Positions 291-5,811 of a DNA stretch of 5,811 nt are shown piece by piece. The DNA comes from a virus, in the IMG/VR virus record IMGVR_UViG_3300045988_026689, one strand, 5' to 3'. The position numbers were made by a program, and so were the translations under genes. Each line of letters begins with the position of its first letter. Position 1 is the stretch's first letter. A model generated the notes under the pieces. That model searched no databases. It saw nothing but the letters and a program-made list of their open reading frames with translations, and was not told the origin of the DNA.

Positions 291-1151
291 ATGGAAACAT
301 TATTGAAACTTTTTCCGTACCTCTTGCAAGGACTAAGCATGTTAACAGACATCGCAACAAGCAGCAACCAGAGCAGCGCTAAGAACACCGAGGCAGCGGG
401 CAGCGAGACCACAACCGGCAGCGAGACCACAACCGGCAGCTTAACAGCACCGCAACAGATAGGTGCAGCACAAATCAGCACGCCAACAGGTATCACAACA
501 ATCGGGAATGAAAGCAGCGTAAACAACGCAAACGCACTGCAAATGATGAGCGGACTATTGAGCAACCTCGCGAACGCTGGAAGCCAAGCAAGCGCAAAAA
601 AGTACAACAGCGCAGAAGCGGCAGCAGAACGAGCGTTCCAGAAGGAAATGCGGGGGACGGCCTATCAGGATACAGTAAAGGACATGATCGCGGCGGGCAT
701 CAATCCTATTCTGGCAGCGACCAACGGAGCAACAAGCGCACCATCGGGAGCATCTGCAAGCATTGGCAGCCAACATTACAACCAGCAGAGTGCACAGGCT
801 GCAAGCGTATCAGCGATGTACGAATACGGCAACAACACGGCAGAACTGGCAGAAAAATATTTACAGCTATCAAAACAAAGCTCAAGCGCAAAACAGTACA
901 AAGCAGCCAAAAGCTGGGAACAATCAGCAAGCGAGCTGGCAAGCTCAAGCGCAAAACAAGTACAAAAGTACAGCTATGCAGCTAACAAGTTAGGCACAAG
1001 CCTTGCGGGAGCCGGCAAAGCAGCAAAAGACGCAGCAAAAAAGGCCGGCGCAGCAGCAAAAAAAAACGTTGACAAGACAGCAAAGAGCTATGCAGACAAA
1101 CAGATTGAAAAATACCAATCTGGGCAATTCGACGCATACAGAGGAAACTAA
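291..1151 (+). CDS. VP2: Microviridae DNA pilot / minor capsid protein (VP2, H-protein analogue).
   Basis: 286-aa ORF directly downstream of VP1. It has an Ala/Ser/Gln/Lys-rich low-complexity composition. It contains the block AERAFQKEMRGTAYQDTVKDMIAAGINPILA, which matches the conserved NTAYQR..D.K.AGLNPxL core I recall from gokushovirus VP2 proteins. The start is uncertain: ATG 291 has no adjacent SD (see the split-SD finding) and ATG 339 is the alternative. Confidence 0.85.
   Translation: METLLKLFPYLLQGLSMLTDIATSSNQSSAKNTEAAGSETTTGSETTTGSLTAPQQIGAAQISTPTGITTIGNESSVNNANALQMMSGLLSNLANAGSQASAKKYNSAEAAAERAFQKEMRGTAYQDTVKDMIAAGINPILAATNGATSAPSGASASIGSQHYNQQSAQAASVSAMYEYGNNTAELAEKYLQLSKQSSSAKQYKAAKSWEQSASELASSSAKQVQKYSYAANKLGTSLAGAGKAAKDAAKKAGAAAKKNVDKTAKSYADKQIEKYQSGQFDAYRGN
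399..440 (+). repeat. In-frame 18-nt tandem duplication inside VP2 (ggcagcgagaccacaacc x2 plus a partial ggcagc), encoding GSETTT-GSETTT-GS.
   Basis: Units at 399-416 and 417-434 are identical; the partial third unit is at 435-440. Confidence 0.9.
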
Positions 1152-1226: not shown

Positions 1227-1396
1227 GAGTTTTCAACACTTTCAACAGGTTTTCAACATAAAGTTGCACAAAGAAATCCGTCATAATGACGAACATTCAA
1301 CAATTCAACAAGTTTTCAACAAAGTTTTCAACAGGCAAAAAGGCAATAAATAAACGTAGTAACATTAAAAAAACGAGTTTTCAACGCTTTCAACAC
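1227..1396 (+). repeat. Iteron-like array of nine same-orientation copies of the TTCAAC(A) core, five of them as GTTTTCAAC(A/G), in three clusters.
   Basis: TTCAAC starts at 1232, 1241, 1252 | 1296, 1304, 1315, 1327 | 1380, 1389. Spacing within clusters is 8-12 nt. The outer 22-mers gagttttcaacactttcaacag (1227-1248) and gagttttcaacgctttcaacac (1375-1396) differ at 2 positions. Confidence 0.9.
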
Positions 1397-1412
1397 TACT
1401 ACTACTACTACT
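1395..1412 (+). repeat. (ACT)6 trinucleotide microsatellite in the intergenic region.
   Basis: actactactactactact read directly at 1395-1412, abutting the last TTCAACA copy. Confidence 0.95.
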
Positions 1413-1449
1413 ACAACAAGTTAATAATAAAAGAAAGGGAGGTGTCAAA

Positions 1450-1480
1450 CGGCACAAGATAGACAAGGAAGCTTGTGCCG
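1450..1480 (+). other. Perfect 9-bp stem / 13-nt loop hairpin just upstream of the Rep start codon.
   Basis: cggcacaag (1450-1458) and cttgtgccg (1472-1480) are exact reverse complements. The loop is atagacaaggaag. Confidence 0.8.
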
Positions 1481-1489
1481 GTAACAAAA

Positions 1490-2479
1490 ATGCCATGTAC
1501 AAAACCATTAGTATTTCAGATGGATACGAAAAAACCAAGACTGTGGGGAAGTCTGGAAAACCTATCAAAACAAGGGCTACAAACGGACATCATGGACGGA
1601 ATCAAAAAAGGAAAATTCGCACTGTTACCATGCGGTAAATGCGAGTATTGCCGCAAACAGATGGCTGACCAATGGGCAACCAGGATAGAGCTGGAGGCCA
1701 AAGAATGGGACGATGTAATTTTTCTAACGCTGACGTATGACGATGAACATATTCCATACGGCGAAATTCTCAAAGGATACCAGAGTATCCAAAGTCAAAC
1801 AGTAAGCAAGCGAGACGCGCAGCTATTCCTAAAAAGACTGCGGAAAGCGTACAAGAAACCAATAAAATATTTCCTAGCGGCTGAATATGGCGACAAGACA
1901 AAAAGACCACACTACCACGCGATAGTATTCGGACTAAAACCACCTGATGCACAATGGTATAAAAACCAAAAGGGCAACAGCTATTTTAAAAGCAAGTGGC
2001 TAGAAAAAATATGGGGCAAAGGCATGATAGACTTTTCACCAGCACAACCAGGAAGTTTTGCATACGTGGCACAGTACGTCAACAAAAAAGCCATAGGTGC
2101 AGAGGAAAGCGCGAAATACTGGATGCAGGGCAGAGAACCAGAGTTTAGGATCATGTCGAAAGGCATCGGCGAAAAATATCTAAACGAGCACAAAGATGAA
2201 ATTTTAAAAACAGATAGCATCATCTGTGCAGGAGGACGCGAGAAAAGGCCTCCACGCTATTTTGATAAAATCCTAGATAAAGATACAAGCCAAGACACTG
2301 AAAGCTATTTCAAGGCACATTCTGACGAACTAAGAGAGGTTAGAGCCAGACGCAGACGCAACGCAATACAGAGTTTGATCAATCTCGAACAGAGCACGAA
2401 CGTGGATTATGAAACCTATCTAAACATCCAGAAAGAAAAAGATAATCTAAGGCAAAAATGGCGTGAACCGAAAGTTTGA
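1490..2479 (+). CDS. VP4: Rolling-circle replication initiator (VP4 / phiX174 protein A family, HUH endonuclease).
   Basis: ORF 1475-2479. I place the start at ATG 1490 because MPCTKPL... resembles the usual MPC..P N-terminus of gokushovirus VP4. Motifs present: PCGKCEYCR (Cys cluster), FLTLTYDDEH (motif 1), RPHYHAIVFG (HUH motif 2) and FAYVAQYVNKKA (the Y-x3-Y-x2-K double-tyrosine motif 3). Confidence 0.93.
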   Translation: MPCTKPLVFQMDTKKPRLWGSLENLSKQGLQTDIMDGIKKGKFALLPCGKCEYCRKQMADQWATRIELEAKEWDDVIFLTLTYDDEHIPYGEILKGYQSIQSQTVSKRDAQLFLKRLRKAYKKPIKYFLAAEYGDKTKRPHYHAIVFGLKPPDAQWYKNQKGNSYFKSKWLEKIWGKGMIDFSPAQPGSFAYVAQYVNKKAIGAEESAKYWMQGREPEFRIMSKGIGEKYLNEHKDEILKTDSIICAGGREKRPPRYFDKILDKDTSQDTESYFKAHSDELREVRARRRRNAIQSLINLEQSTNVDYETYLNIQKEKDNLRQKWREPKV

Positions 2480-2666: not shown

Positions 2667-2819
2667 ATGAAAGGTTACGATGATTACACAGGACTGTTCA
2701 CAAGCCGCTACTACGCAAAAAAATACGCAAAAGGAGATGAGGTAGTCGTAAAAGTTGAGGGTGGATACAAAGTAATAACCGCCGACTATTATTACAAGAT
2801 CTGGAAAACGCAAAAATGA
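2667..2819 (+). CDS. Hypothetical 50-aa Tyr/Lys-rich protein, translationally coupled to the downstream peptidase.
   Basis: ATG 2667 to TGA 2817-2819: MKGYDDYTGLFTSRYYAKKYAKGDEVVVKVEGGYKVITADYYYKIWKTQK. GGTGA lies 6 nt upstream of the start. The stop overlaps the next start as ATGA (2816-2819). The ORF is too short to appear in the supplied track. It has no hydrophobic segment and I recognise no family. Confidence 0.45.
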   Translation: MKGYDDYTGLFTSRYYAKKYAKGDEVVVKVEGGYKVITADYYYKIWKTQK

Positions 2820-3226
2820 AAGGATTGACAAAAATGATTAAAAGCTACATAATGAACACAGACGGAAACGTGAAGCTTGCGAGACACTTCTCGGTAAAGG
2901 AATTCGCTTGCAAGGACGGGTCACCAGTAGTTTTCATCGACGACTACTTATACACCATCCTGGACATCCTAAGGCATAAGATAGGGAAGCCGGTAATCAT
3001 AACGAGCGGATACAGGACGCCAGAATGGAACAAAAAATGCGGGGGAGCAAAATACAGCTACCACATGCGCGGTATGGCCGCAGATATCCGGGTGGAAGGA
3101 ATGAGCGCAAAACAGCTTGCCAACGAACTGAATGCAATCATACCGGAAGAATGCGGCATTATCGTATACAAGAGCTGGGTGCACTTTGACGTGCGCACCG
3201 GCAAAAAGTACAGAAAGGGGGTGTAA
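2816..3226 (+). CDS. Zinc D,D-/L,D-peptidase of the M15 family (Peptidase_M15_3 / DUF882-like fold); putative peptidoglycan hydrolase (endolysin-like).
   Basis: The 136-aa ORF contains FSVKEFACKDG, LRHKIGKPVIITSGYRTPEWNKKCGGAKYSYHMRGMAADI and WVHFDVR. These give the SGYR...N..GG...S.H..G.A.D ... H.D arrangement of Zn ligands (H, D, H) characteristic of M15 cell-wall peptidases. The start is ambiguous between in-frame ATGs at 2816, 2834 and 2852. Confidence 0.9.
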   Translation: MKGLTKMIKSYIMNTDGNVKLARHFSVKEFACKDGSPVVFIDDYLYTILDILRHKIGKPVIITSGYRTPEWNKKCGGAKYSYHMRGMAADIRVEGMSAKQLANELNAIIPEECGIIVYKSWVHFDVRTGKKYRKGV

Positions 3227-3228
3227 AA

Positions 3229-3345
3229 ATGGCACACAGAAGCGGAGCGGGTCGAGGCGACCAGAAACGATTCACGCAGACCGCAAAACGCGTGAAAAAC
3301 GTCAACGTCCGACCAAAAGTATCACGCGGTGGCATCCGCCTGTAA
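3229..3345 (+). CDS. Small arginine/lysine-rich DNA-binding protein (phiX174 J / Chlamydia-phage ORF8 analogue).
   Basis: ATG 3229 to TAA 3343-3345: MAHRSGAGRGDQKRFTQTAKRVKNVNVRPKVSRGGIRL (38 aa, 10 R/K residues, 1 D). SD aagggggtg lies 6-7 nt upstream. The C-terminal RGGIRL resembles the ...MRGGIRF ending I recall for gokushovirus ORF8 proteins. It is not in the supplied track because it is under 60 aa. Confidence 0.7.
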   Translation: MAHRSGAGRGDQKRFTQTAKRVKNVNVRPKVSRGGIRL

Positions 3346-3348
3346 AAA

Positions 3349-3430
3349 GGCTGCATGCTGAAGGCTGCATGCTGAAGGCTGCATGCTGAAGGCTGCATGC
3401 TGAAGGCTGCATGCTGAAGGCTGCATGCAG
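3349..3430 (+). repeat. Perfect 14-nt tandem repeat (ggctgcatgctgaa) x5 plus a partial sixth copy that ends in the 10-bp palindrome ctgcatgcag.
   Basis: Units at 3349-3362, 3363-3376, 3377-3390, 3391-3404 and 3405-3418 are identical. The sixth copy, ggctgcatgcag (3419-3430), diverges at unit position 11. Each unit contains the palindrome GCATGC. The unit length is not a multiple of 3. Confidence 0.97.
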
Positions 3431-3450: not shown

Positions 3451-3555
3451 GTGGACTTTAAGGAAACCATGAACATCCTGATGAAAATCCTTGCAATGGT
3501 GGACAAGATTTACCATGCAGTGGTCAAAGAAGATGATGACAAGAACGAAGAATAA
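3451..3555 (+). CDS. Hypothetical 34-aa protein (GTG start) with an amphipathic N-half and an acidic tail.
   Basis: AAAGGAGGTG (3436-3445) lies 5 nt upstream of GTG 3451; the stop is TAA 3553-3555. Sequence: MDFKETMNILMKILAMVDKIYHAVVKEDDDKNEE. An alternative in-frame ATG at 3469 has no SD. I recognise no family, and the ORF is too short for the supplied track. Confidence 0.4.
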   Translation: MDFKETMNILMKILAMVDKIYHAVVKEDDDKNEE

Positions 3556-3566
3556 AGGAGAAAAAC

Positions 3567-3821
3567 ATGAAACTGAAATTTTACTCGTTCCGCGACGCAC
3601 TAACCAACGGCTACTCTCAGCCGTTTTTGCAGAACAACAGAGCGCAGGCAGTAAGAACGGCACGATGGAAAGCAGACGAAAGCAAGCCGAACGAAATCGA
3701 GGACATCAGCCTCGTTGAGCTGGGCGAATTCGACACGGAAACGGGATACATGAGTGAGGCAGCGCCTGAACACATCGCACGACTCATCGACCTGAAGGAG
3801 ACGACCAATGTTAAATCCTGA
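3567..3821 (+). CDS. VP5: VP5-like small non-structural protein (gokushovirus ORF5 family, proposed phiX174 protein C analogue).
   Basis: 84-aa ORF with AAAGGAG 6 nt upstream. The pattern MKLKFYSFRD......SQPF.....A.A.R.......P.E..D..LVELGEFDTETG matches the conserved layout I recall for microvirus VP5/ORF5 proteins (F.I.D.K...F..PF ... D..L...G.FD..TG). Its position directly upstream of and overlapping VP3 is canonical. Confidence 0.6.
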   Translation: MKLKFYSFRDALTNGYSQPFLQNNRAQAVRTARWKADESKPNEIEDISLVELGEFDTETGYMSEAAPEHIARLIDLKETTNVKS

Positions 3822-4230
3822 AATGATGGTGCGATACTTCGGGCTGCCGACAGAAAGAAAGACAAACAATTCTGGCAGCAAGACAGAACCAACATGGAAA
3901 GCAGTCAAACGACCAAACGGCACTACCGACTACATCCAGCAGCCGGACGAAAACATATACGAGAAAATCCAAAAAGCGGGCGAGGGCTACGACCTTGCAA
4001 GCGCAATCGCGAGGCTGGAAGCTGGAGACACCAGCATCAAAGCAAAAAGCGTGATATACACCGAGGGCACCGGCCTCGAAAATCTACCAAAAGATATCAT
4101 GACAATGCACGAAAAAGCAAACGCAGCAGCCGAAACACTGGAAAAACTGAAACAGATGAAAAAGAACGAACAACCGAAGCCGGAAGAAGAAAAAAAGGAA
4201 GAGGTGAAGGACAACGAACAGAAACAGTGA
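3808..4230 (+). CDS. VP3: Internal scaffolding protein (VP3, Chlamydia-phage scaffold family).
   Basis: 140-aa ORF with GAAGGAG 7 nt upstream. It overlaps the VP5 3' end by 14 nt and lies immediately upstream of VP1. NIYEKIQKAGEGYDLASAIARLEAGDTS......YTEGTG...LPKDIMTMHEKANAAAETLEKL resembles the conserved central part of gokushovirus VP3. It has a highly charged Lys/Glu C-tail. Confidence 0.72.
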   Translation: MLNPEMMVRYFGLPTERKTNNSGSKTEPTWKAVKRPNGTTDYIQQPDENIYEKIQKAGEGYDLASAIARLEAGDTSIKAKSVIYTEGTGLENLPKDIMTMHEKANAAAETLEKLKQMKKNEQPKPEEEKKEEVKDNEQKQ

Positions 4231-4255
4231 AAACCATTTCGCGCAAGTGCCGCGA

Positions 4256-5811
4256 ATGGAGCGACCACGAAGCAAATTTGACCGAAGTCATCAGCTCTTG
4301 ACGACCATTAACGAGGGCGAACTCGTTCCAATCTACTGCGACGAAGTACTGCCGGGTGATACCGCACGTATTCGTCTGAACGGCCTTATCCGTATGAGTA
4401 CACCCATCTATCCAGTGATGGATAACTGCTATATGGACACATACTTCTTCTTTGTCCCGTGCCGTCTGCTGTGGGAGCACTGGCAAAACATGTTTGGGGA
4501 GAATGACACCGATTACTGGGCAGAGAAAACCGAATACAGCACGCCGACATGCAAAATTGGCGGCAAATCCGGGCTTGCAAATGGCAGCATCGGCGACTAC
4601 TTCGGACTGCCGACCGAAGTAAAAAATGAAATCCAAGTTAACGCGCTGCCTATCAGAGCATACGCAATGATCTACAACGAATGGTTTCGAGACGAAAATC
4701 TGGAAGCACCGCTAATGCTAGGCTACAAAAAAACCGATGATGCAGCAAAAGACGATTCACCGGGACCGGCAAACGCATACGCCAACCAACCGTCGTTAAC
4801 AACAAACACCAACGAAGCAAGCATGTACGGGAGAAAACCGGCCAAAGCGGGTAAGTTCCACGACTACTTCACGTCCTGCCTCCCTTCACCGTTGAAATCT
4901 GACCCTGTGGAAATCAGCCTGACAGGAGACGCACCGGTCGTTATGGGCAACTACAACGAAGTAACCGGCAAGGTAGAAGCATTTGACATGGATACGAATG
5001 TCTGGTTCAACGGCAAAGGCGCAGGAGCGGGGCGAGCCTTCAACCGGTATTACCAGAATACACAACCAGGATACCCGGCGGTAGAACTGGCAGGCCTAGA
5101 AACCAACGGAGCAACAACTCAGCCAGACGGCGGCAACATCCTAACAGGCAACCTATACGCCAACCTGAACAACGTGACGGCAATCAAAATTGAGGATTTG
5201 CGAATGGCTATTGCCTTACAGCACATTTTCGAGACTGATGCACGAAACGGCACGCGCTACCGCGAATTCCTAAGCGGAACATGGGGCGTAACGTCACCGG
5301 ACAGCCGTCTGCAGATTCCGGAATACATCGGCGGTCAGCGCATAGCAATCAACGTCAATCAGGTCGTACAGACGAGCCAGACGGACACGACAACCGGACA
5401 GGCACTGGGCAATACAGCAGCATACAGTCTGACCACATGCAGTAAGCAGATGGTTGACTATGCAGCAACCGAATACGGCTATATCATCGGTCTGGCAGTG
5501 GTACGAGTGGAGCACAGCTATCAGCAGGGACTTGCGACCAAGTGGACACGCGGTGGAAGATTTACCTACTACGACCCGCGACTGGCAACACTGGGAGAGC
5601 AGCCGGTATACAACAGAGAAATCTACGCACAGGGCACGCCCGAAGATAACGAAATCTTCGGGTACCAAGAAGCTTGGGCGGACTACCGCTACAAGCCATC
5701 TTACGTAACCGGAGAAATGAGGTCGAACTACGCGACAAGTCTGGACGCATGGCACTATGCAGACGATTATAACACGCTGCCGAGACTGTCAGCGGAATGG
5801 ATACAAGAGGG
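4256..5811 (+). CDS. VP1: Microviridae major capsid protein (VP1 / F-protein family). This is the N-terminal ~519 codons; the gene continues across the circular junction into 1-252, for 562 aa in total.
   Basis: Frame 2 has no stop codon from ATG 4256 to the window end. It is absent from the ORF track only because it has no stop in the window. Translation: MERPRSKFDRSHQLLTTINEGELVPIYCDEVLPGDTARIRLNGLIRMSTPIYPVMDNCYMDTYFFFVPCRLLWEHWQNMFGE...RAYAMIYNEWFRDENL. These are hallmark conserved blocks of microvirus capsid proteins. The frame at 5693 equals the frame of position 1. Confidence 0.95.
   Translation, partial: MERPRSKFDRSHQLLTTINEGELVPIYCDEVLPGDTARIRLNGLIRMSTPIYPVMDNCYMDTYFFFVPCRLLWEHWQNMFGENDTDYWAEKTEYSTPTCKIGGKSGLANGSIGDYFGLPTEVKNEIQVNALPIRAYAMIYNEWFRDENLEAPLMLGYKKTDDAAKDDSPGPANAYANQPSLTTNTNEASMYGRKPAKAGKFHDYFTSCLPSPLKSDPVEISLTGDAPVVMGNYNEVTGKVEAFDMDTNVWFNGKGAGAGRAFNRYYQNTQPGYPAVELAGLETNGATTQPDGGNILTGNLYANLNNVTAIKIEDLRMAIALQHIFETDARNGTRYREFLSGTWGVTSPDSRLQIPEYIGGQRIAINVNQVVQTSQTDTTTGQALGNTAAYSLTTCSKQMVDYAATEYGYIIGLAVVRVEHSYQQGLATKWTRGGRFTYYDPRLATLGEQPVYNREIYAQGTPEDNEIFGYQEAWADYRYKPSYVTGEMRSNYATSLDAWHYADDYNTLPRLSAEWIQE
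5693..5811. repeat. Terminal direct repeat, right copy (identical to 1-119).
   Basis: Same as the left copy. It runs to the last base of the window, as expected for an end overlap of a circular contig. Confidence 0.95.

Follow-up and report, generated by a model that had tools for sequence, protein, structure and literature searches.

Wall peptidases of the Pfam family PF08291 (Peptidase_M15_3) have been known in gut gokushoviruses since 2012. Roux et al. (PMC3394797) found them in 11 human-associated Microviridae, 5 of them Gokushovirinae, reported relatives in Faecalibacterium and other Clostridiales that lie beside holin genes, and proposed both a horizontal acquisition of Firmicutes-related origin and an endolysin role. 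The M15 peptidase is listed in the literature as a recurrent accessory gene of microviruses, Kirchberger et al. described one peptidase that recombines between distant microviruses, and the GenBank annotation of the gut gokushovirus genome KX513876.1 already includes a "peptidase M15". M15 metallopeptidases are also present in marine Occultatumvirinae isolates, and some marine microvirus subgroups have no peptidase. Purified Gp7 of the Tainavirinae microvirus Ebor degrades peptidoglycan and is the first peptidoglycan hydrolase of a single-stranded DNA phage to be verified biochemically (PMC11980548). A gokushovirus of E. coli has been resurrected from synthetic DNA (eLife 2020, PMC7062461). 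We found no paper on how a microvirus wall peptidase crosses the membrane, and host lysis by gokushoviruses is still unexplained even though they are among the most abundant phages of the mammalian gut. Here we describe the M15_3 peptidase gene of IMG/VR record IMGVR_UViG_3300045988_026689, whose whole stretch of 5811 nucleotides (nt) is called the window below, together with a 34-residue amphipathic protein encoded downstream of it.

The window is a complete circular gokushovirus genome, composed of a 5692-nt unit and a 119-nt terminal overlap, with every recognisable gene on the + strand. Of annotated genomes, "Human gut gokushovirus" KX513876.1 is the nearest, with 86% DNA identity over 79% of the genome. 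An earlier, sequence-only reading of the window had supposed that M15 genes were probably not unprecedented in Microviridae and that they occurred there sporadically. The work cited above bears out the first supposition. The second does not hold here, as the gene is carried by all 137 related genomes that were fetched, which represent three related gut lineages with different backbones (A, A' and B) and three gene orders. We propose that the peptidase is an endolysin-type enzyme released via membrane damage by the small amphipathic protein, the two genes forming a lysis module without a holin. We put the probability of this full model at about 0.3 and think it rather probable that, more narrowly, the peptidase serves as lysis effector.

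Family, start and kinship of the peptidase

The peptidase matches PF08291 end to end (profile positions 2-108 of 108; residues 24-125 of the 136-residue open reading frame, ORF), with 80.8 bits against a gathering threshold of 23.2 and E 9.8e-23, and it matches the "endolysin" family PHROG 894 with E 3.7e-42. Its membership of the M15 zinc peptidases, as first proposed from the letters of the window, is firm by sequence. The strings SGYR, GGAKYSYHMRGMAADI and WVHFD and the N-terminus that had been quoted for the ORF 2816-3226 are all present in the 136-residue translation. Residue numbers given here follow the 130-residue form that starts at 2834. The S-x-H-x3-G-x-A-x-D and H-x-D motifs are those of LAS/M15 zinc peptidases, and R61, S75, H77, D84, H117, D119 and R121 show no variation in alignments that extend to gp43 of Salmonella phage SP6 and the homologs from Clostridia. 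These alignments contain the complete zinc-ligand pattern (H-x6-D, a distant H, an Arg and an acidic residue), and its counterparts in 1LBU and Hedgehog align with it: the S75 to D84 motif pairs with SRHMYGHAAD of 1LBU and with SLHYEGRAxD of the Hedgehog N-domains. D119 is the probable catalytic residue. The C-terminus K-Y-R-K-G is also invariant. The ratio of non-synonymous to synonymous substitution rates (dN/dS) is 0.19 in frame versus 1.1-1.7 out of frame, and the gene is thus under purifying selection.

Among solved structures, the only clear relative by sequence is 1LBU, the zinc DD-carboxypeptidase of Streptomyces albus G (E 2.2e-4 with the single sequence, E 5.7e-9 with a profile). Hedgehog N-domains give weak matches in which the same ligand motifs are aligned. 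The two AlphaFold models of the peptidase have a predicted local distance difference test score (pLDDT) of only about 71. The first of them, built on a shallow alignment, gave no significant fold match with Foldseek. The second, built on a two-subfamily alignment (pLDDT 71.4, predicted template modelling score 0.69), retrieved LAS proteins as all of its top 16 matches, with 1LBU in first place at probability 1.00 and a best E of only 3.7e-3. The other matches include VanY, VanXYc, Hedgehog N-domains, the endolysin LysECD7, LdcB and MepA, and the T5 endolysin stands at rank 23. The comparison of the modelled fold agrees with the LAS family and is not decisive alone.

Translation probably starts at ATG 2834, which gives a protein of 130 residues, and not at ATG 2816. 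The modal length of the homologs is 130 residues, most of them begin M-I/L-K-S-Y, and a Shine-Dalgarno (SD)-like AAGGA precedes ATG 2834; no SD motif was found upstream of ATG 2816. With the start at 2834, the ATGA overlap between the longer form and a 50-residue ORF upstream is probably incidental rather than a functional junction.

The bacterial homologs are almost all from Clostridia (Lachnospiraceae, Oscillospiraceae/Faecalibacterium, Lacrimispora). In genomes of Clostridia the domain occurs in three forms: as part of secreted bacterial proteins whose signal peptides are clear, in fusions with other lysin domains, and as single-domain prophage proteins of about 130-140 residues that are flanked by ORFs with 1-3 transmembrane (TM) segments. 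In Faecalibacterium phage FP_oengus, the genes after that of the annotated endolysin gp82 (42.6% identical) encode the TM protein gp83 and then the holin gp84, and in the P0175 group (47% identical, 40-48-kb contigs) the homolog lies directly after a 63-residue ORF with two TM segments. The tailed-phage homologs thus adjoin holins, and there the enzyme is a holin-dependent endolysin. Among 185,579 species genomes, neither a relative of the peptidase above 50% identity nor an integrated or episomal copy was found. Four short genome-bin contigs considered as holin-carrying microviruses were rejected, being tailed-phage or bacterial fragments.

The basic C-terminal tail was considered as a microvirus-specific signal for packaging or membrane binding, and this was rejected: the tailed-phage homologs have the same tail ("DVRxxKxRW"), and its codons double as a downstream SD. 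This bears on the proposal that a few packaged or attached copies of the peptidase open the wall of the next host for the capsid or for a VP2 conduit. Such a putative entry enzyme, which we hold to be unlikely, would act from outside and need no export. If the thick-walled Clostridia that hold nearly all of the closest cellular and prophage homologs are the hosts, entry of a tailless virion might require the wall to be cut, and the tailless phages PRD1 and Bam35 do carry virion-associated wall hydrolases. Ebor Gp7 was found in purified virions, in trace amounts only (PMC11980548), a level that could be carry-over. The T=1 capsid, moreover, has little spare volume, the basic tail is common to tailed-phage endolysins and is not a microvirus packaging signal, and lysis would still have to be explained.

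More than 1200 close relatives of the peptidase are present in the protein database, nearly all on 5.3-6.2-kb contigs, and the top 120 all have at least 80% identity. Lineage A, to which the window belongs (Rep 92-99% and VP1 about 75-96% identical to the window), has the gene order Rep, peptidase, J-like, small ORF, VP5. Lineage A' (Rep about 80%, VP5 about 70-74%) has the order J-like, small ORF, peptidase, VP5. Lineage B, whose Rep, VP1 and VP2 are only about 35-50% identical to those of the window, has the order Rep, peptidase, small ORF, 75-residue ORF, J-like. The A' peptidase is 42% identical to that of the window and so as distant as the tailed-phage enzymes are, which indicates that the gene was acquired or replaced more than once. 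A hunt for members of the three lineages without a peptidase found none; both the peptidase and the small ORF are missing only in very distant 4.4-kb gokushoviruses.

Membrane passage and the small amphipathic protein

Hydropathy was scored as the maximum Kyte-Doolittle mean over 19 residues (KD19), with a cut-off of 1.6, for ORFs of at least 25 residues in all + strand frames. The KD19 maximum of the peptidase is 0.84. No signal peptide, signal-arrest-release (SAR) or TM segment was detected in it by hydropathy, as the sequence-only reading had held, and its polar N-terminus MIKSYIMNTDGNVKLARHF is homologous to that of cytoplasmic tailed-phage enzymes. No + strand ORF of the window reaches 1.6, the maximum of 1.25 belonging to the 34-residue ORF, and among about 130 relatives the cut-off was reached on this strand only by contig-end oddities and by one 10.9-kb contig. 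A canonical holin-endolysin cassette, in which a TM holin is encoded with the endolysin, is found neither in the window nor in these relatives, and the three + strand frames hold no overprinted ORF with an N-terminal TM segment like that of the phiX174 E-type amurins. As positive controls, the holin adjacent to the P0175 homolog scored 1.86, FP_oengus gp83 2.57 and phiX174 E 2.79. The annotated FP_oengus holin gp84 scores only 1.43, and the cut-off is thus not infallible. At a relaxed level the sole qualifying segment of the clade is the N-terminus of VP2, at up to 1.57, and this helix is a possible alternative membrane-active element. With no signal peptide and no TM holin in the clade, the peptidase must cross the membrane by a non-canonical route if it acts on the wall.

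The earlier statement that no ORF is holin-like therefore stands for the + strand, clade-wide, but it overlooked several TM-like segments in minus-strand ORFs of the window (KD19 2.0-2.7). That one of these, for example 281-607, 3987-4268 or 4084-4275, encodes an antisense holin is in our view very improbable. Three hydrophobic minus-strand ORFs are open in 29-40 of 43 lineage A genomes, and Roux et al. (PMC3394797) noted one possible complementary-strand gene beside a microvirus peptidase. The minus-strand ORFs nearest to the peptidase, however, are open in none of the 43. In lineages A, A' and B the coding strand is unusually rich in A and poor in T (A 34-37.5%, T 16.6-18.6%, AT skew 0.2-0.57; 16.6% T in the window), a bias that clears all of its frames of hydrophobic ORFs and gives rise to many such ORFs on the opposite strand. 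Hydrophobicity is thus expected from the T-rich minus strand, and these ORFs look like compositional by-products. Their open frames lie opposite purine-rich coding sequence, and low dN/dS was seen only in frames that share the sense wobble position, the sense frame always being the lowest, a test that alone is not decisive. Hydrophobic + strand ORFs are numerous in five distant microviruses that carry a peptidase and have 31-34% T; among them is a free-standing TM ORF of 35 residues in Dulem virus 178. We know of no antisense gene that has been demonstrated in Microviridae.

Export would be needless if the peptidase stayed in the cytoplasm as an enzymatic "amurin" and cleaved wall precursors there (D-Ala-D-Ala, UDP-MurNAc-pentapeptide or inner-leaflet lipid II), the cell bursting through a defective wall. 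This possibility, which the sequence-only reading had not raised and which we also regard as improbable, requires no holin and fits the microvirus habit of single-gene lysis, as a catalytic counterpart of phiX174 E. 1LBU is deposited as a "muramoyl-pentapeptide carboxypeptidase", a class defined by removing the terminal D-Ala of the precursor stem peptide, and VanY and VanXY are among the fold matches. The zinc D-Ala-D-Ala dipeptidase VanX, which the ChiX paper puts in the LAS group, lyses E. coli as a soluble cytoplasmic protein, according to the account of Sohya et al. (2014) given in PMC11514776. The closest tailed-phage homologs, on the other hand, adjoin holins and hence act on the mature wall there, and the linked small ORF would be left without explanation. 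Many M15-type endolysins, besides, are made in the E. coli cytoplasm without lysis.

The 50-residue ORF upstream, which had been suggested as a coupled export partner, was rejected in that role. Only 3 of 81 relatives have it, each time inserted between the noncoding block and the peptidase, and its protein, rich in Tyr, Lys and Arg, is soluble and has no hydrophobic or strongly amphipathic segment. The family comprises 34 clusters (consensus TGLYxSRYYAKK...VVVKVxGGYxIM...W+xQK) and is located mainly on 50-60-kb tailed-phage contigs and ~15-kb gut phage contigs, among early or replication-looking small genes; none of the 78 tailed-phage-type loci surveyed has an M15 gene beside it. Judged by this distribution, the ORF is a sporadic accessory gene of tailed-phage origin and a second gene common to tailed phages and microviruses.

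The small protein of the window (ORF34) is a divergent member of a family of 34-40 residues, MALI(S/K)xKDxKxAI..MM.ILEKLDEIYHAL.D...., that was recognised from ORF maps; the window copy is atypical, and tblastn with it alone misses most of the family. Members are present in 136 of the 137 genomes, and all 46 loci retrieved by the small ORF alone also carry the peptidase, including its 42-49% alleles. With a dN/dS of 0.11 in frame versus 1.3 and 2.4 out of frame, the small ORF is a genuine gene, at least as constrained as the peptidase. Its ATG lies 1-4 nt past the peptidase stop in 73 genomes, where the peptidase codons AAG GGG GTG supply the SD. In lineage A' it stands directly upstream of the peptidase, and in the window the slot right after the peptidase is occupied by the J-like ORF. 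The protein is a single amphipathic helix with a net charge of -1 to -4. Its hydrophobic moment of 0.53-0.70, at a mean hydrophobicity of 0-0.2, resembles that of delta-toxin, PSM-alpha3 and melittin and exceeds that of the GCN4 zipper. A PHROG search with the protein gave no significant family. The conserved set of lineage A consists of eight genes, VP1 to VP5, the J-like gene, the peptidase and the small protein. The last is the only one of these without an assigned role and by elimination the only conserved candidate if a second phage factor is needed. Its earlier nomination as a helper has gained from its near-universal presence, its constraint and its coupling to the peptidase; its membrane activity, like the peptidoglycan activity and the lysis role of the peptidase, is what we infer from sequence.

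According to the proposed mechanism, gut gokushoviruses would have captured a single-domain zinc LAS/M15A peptidoglycan peptidase from tailed phages of Clostridia-like bacteria. The captured enzyme would have become a fixed gene, exchanged between lineages, and would serve as the wall-degrading effector of host lysis. The small amphipathic protein would accumulate late and disturb the cytoplasmic membrane, which would free the folded peptidase, so that this protein may act as a holin substitute without a TM segment.

Several points weigh against this mechanism. The co-occurrence of the small ORF and the peptidase may be a mere clade trait, as the hunt turned up no peptidase-less member of these lineages that would break the link. 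The sequence type of the small ORF tracks the backbone and not the peptidase allele, and in lineage A the J-like gene stands between the two. Its net negative charge sets the small protein apart from most lytic peptides, and a soluble coiled coil or an assembly factor could also show such a heptad-like pattern. The peptidase model is only moderate (pLDDT 71) and its Foldseek E-values are weak (best 3.7e-3). The best bacterial homologs, finally, are at most 50% identical and point to no particular host.

The peptidase might also be an accessory that only speeds or completes wall breakdown, the primary lesion coming from a non-TM lysis protein, from excess VP2 with its hydrophobic N-terminus or from host autolysins. 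We give this reading a small but appreciable chance. Classical gokushoviruses without a peptidase still lyse their hosts, the marine subgroups mentioned above have none either, and the VP2 N-terminus (KD19 up to 1.57) is comparable to the annotated holin gp84 of FP_oengus (1.43). Yet no candidate primary lysis gene was found, and the peptidase is universally retained, has been acquired repeatedly in the form of distinct alleles and is under strong constraint within a genome of 5.7 kb, all of which argues for more than a marginal role.

The clade narrows the question of gokushovirus lysis to eight conserved genes, with one wall peptidase, one amphipathic protein of 34-40 residues and no membrane protein in the coding-strand frames. 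The peptidase itself will not surprise specialists; the export puzzle is valid across a whole abundant clade and offers a testable entry to gokushovirus lysis. Should the peptidase act with the small protein, or alone from the cytoplasm, this would be a way of lysing hosts that is new for phages, and biotechnology would gain a compact lysis module. That the peptidase has its kin among Clostridia also bears on whether gokushoviruses infect gut bacteria of Gram-positive type.

Gene exchange and other features of the genome

DNA homology between the window and lineage B, as found with blastn, is limited to four blocks (Table 1). Judged from these alignments, the pattern is of the kind of exchange between microviruses described by Kirchberger et al. 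The noncoding block downstream of Rep moves together with the peptidase from one divergent lineage to another. A hairpin, GGCGCTAAAGCGCC, and a promoter-like TTGAAA-17-TAAAAT at 2608-2636 lie within this block, which has no conserved reading frame (the open frames differ among genomes), and may be the regulatory part of a mobile peptidase module. In a junction survey of the 137 genomes, the last peptidase codons, AAG GGG GTG TAA (3212-3226, + strand), were seen to double as the SD-like AAGGGGGTG for an ORF 1-4 nt downstream. The J-like ORF and the small ORF both start with ATGGCAC, and homology between lineages A and B breaks off at precisely this point, a pattern suggestive of a recombination hotspot at the junction (3212-3235). 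ORF34 of the window is 92-96% identical to the small-ORF variant of lineage A' (compared in L254, L261 and L263), which lies there directly upstream of the 42%-identical peptidase allele; most lineage A genomes have the MALIKVK... variant. The small ORF of the window is thus of A' type and the peptidase of A/B type, which makes the window a mosaic in this region.

Table 1. Positions of the features of the window and the basis for each
Feature	Position	Strand	Basis or remark
VP1 major capsid	4247, wraps to 252	+	Pfam/PHROG profile matches
VP2 pilot protein	291-1151	+	Pfam/PHROG profile matches
VP2 N-terminal hydrophobic helix	291-371	+	Highest hydrophobicity of any conserved + strand segment of the clade; KD19 1.15 in the window, relatives up to 1.57
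A/B homology block 3, 200-nt TTCAAC-repeat element	1231-1429		Inverted in lineage B
VP4/Rep	1475-2479	+	Pfam/PHROG profile matches
A/B homology block 2, noncoding	2479 to ~2650	+	Starts with last base of Rep stop codon; 78-95% DNA identity, A versus B
50-residue soluble ORF	2667-2819	+	Between upstream noncoding block and peptidase; 3/81 relatives
Alternative upstream start of peptidase	ATG 2816; 2816-3226	+	136 residues
SD-like AAGGA	2820-2824	+	9 nt upstream of ATG 2834
A/B homology block 1, peptidase	~2825-3235		
Peptidase_M15_3 gene (MEROPS M15A-like, LAS-type zinc peptidase)	2834-3226	+	130 residues; Pfam, PHROG, homolog length, SD, dN/dS
SGYR motif, residues 58-61	3005-3016	+	R61 invariant from microviruses to SP6 gp43; aligns with Arg of GFRS in 1LBU
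S-x-H-x3-G-x-A-x-D motif, S75 to D84	3056-3085	+	Zinc ligands H77 (3062-3064) and D84 (3083-3085), by alignment
WVHFD motif	3176-3190	+	Third zinc ligand H117 (3182-3184); D119 (3188-3190)
J/VP8-like ORF, 38 residues, highly basic (+10)	3229-3345	+	phrog_10695; starts 2 nt past peptidase stop
ORF34, 34-residue amphipathic, net-acidic protein	3451-3555	+	GTG start; perfect 9-nt SD AAGGAGGTG 5 nt upstream
VP5	3567-3821	+	Pfam/PHROG profile matches
VP3 scaffold	3808-4230	+	Pfam/PHROG profile matches
A/B homology block 4, VP1 end with its terminator			

The ORF of 38 residues after the peptidase is interpreted as a J/VP8-like DNA-binding protein; within lineage A it is 87-100% identical, against about 45% in lineage B, and its dN/dS is 0.26. 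Between it and ORF34, a perfect 14-nt tandem repeat, AAGGCTGCATGCTG, is present in 5.9 copies at 3347-3428, each with a GCATGC palindrome. The repeat is limited to the closest relatives of the window and varies in copy number (3.9 in L003, at least 9 in L002, at contig ends), so that the array appears to be a hypervariable minisatellite. Lineage B genomes (for example L028, about +513 to +741 from the peptidase start) have a conserved 75-residue ORF between the small ORF and the J-like ORF, with the consensus M..KTWNVRDQ.KE.LE..L..KYKEI...Y+ML++VSNI.DAK.L.DEIWQMKSF.N.IE.EL.RRE and no counterpart in the window.

The intergenic region between VP2 and Rep (1227-1429) contains about ten (G)TTTTCAAC(A)/TTCAACA repeats, a palindrome, CGTCATAATGACG (about 1278-1290), and an (ACT)x6.7 run. 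Lineage B genomes, with core proteins of only about 40% identity, have this element at 72-88% identity; it sits there between Rep and the peptidase in the opposite orientation. Possibly it serves as an origin or as the binding site of a host factor and passes from one lineage to another. Within VP2, a perfect in-frame 18-nt tandem repeat of 2.3 copies (399-440) encodes the motif GSETTT, and related repeats are found in relatives. Terminator-like GC-rich hairpins followed by T runs lie directly past VP1 (AGCCTCGCAAAAGCGAGGCT + ATTTTTG, in 263-282) and directly past VP2 (GGGGGGTGACAAAACATCCCCC + TTTTTT, in 1160-1188); the VP1 terminator region is kept in lineage B too. Promoter and terminator scans were overall not above chance, and in an Rfam scan no RNA family reached significance.

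Comparison with known systems

The lysis cassettes of tailed phages (FP_oengus gp82-gp84, SP6 gp43, the P0175 group) contain a homologous enzyme with 41-47% identity, the same length and the same single-domain build, and their M15_3 endolysins have the same catalytic motifs and basic C-terminus as the microvirus peptidase. They differ in that at least one TM holin is directly adjacent, whereas the microvirus clade has none and carries instead an amphipathic non-TM ORF of 34-40 residues. 1LBU is the best match by both sequence and fold, with the GxRS, SxHxxGxAAD and H motifs in common, but it is a secreted bacterial enzyme of 213 residues with about 29% identity over 86 aligned residues, and it carries an extra N-terminal wall-binding domain. 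The VanX/VanY/VanXY enzymes, of which VanY and VanXY are fold matches, have a LAS-type zinc site in common with the phage peptidase; they are resistance enzymes and distant from it in sequence.

As with phiX174 E and other amurins, a very small phage would lyse its host with no holin-endolysin pair, and maybe by the same logic if the peptidase acts on precursors. Protein E, however, has no enzymatic activity; it is an overprinted TM protein that inhibits MraY, and no such ORF is present here in any + strand frame. Ebor Gp7 is likewise a small microvirus wall hydrolase (about 146 residues) acquired from tailed phages; it differs in its best HHpred match, 6SSC, in the predicted 45-residue membrane protein Gp1 that Ebor also has, and in the host, a Gram-negative alphaproteobacterium (PMC11980548). 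The window belongs with the M15 group of gut Gokushovirinae of the Roux type, having the PF08291 domain, the gokushovirus backbone and the kinship with Clostridia and Faecalibacterium phages. With those gokushoviruses and with KX513876.1 it shares the Pfam family, the virus group, the gut habitat and the position of the gene downstream of Rep, and nothing essential sets it apart from them. To their description the present analysis adds the clade-wide absence of TM ORFs, the start at 2834, at least two alleles that are 42% identical and lie at different positions, and the universality of the gene in three lineages.

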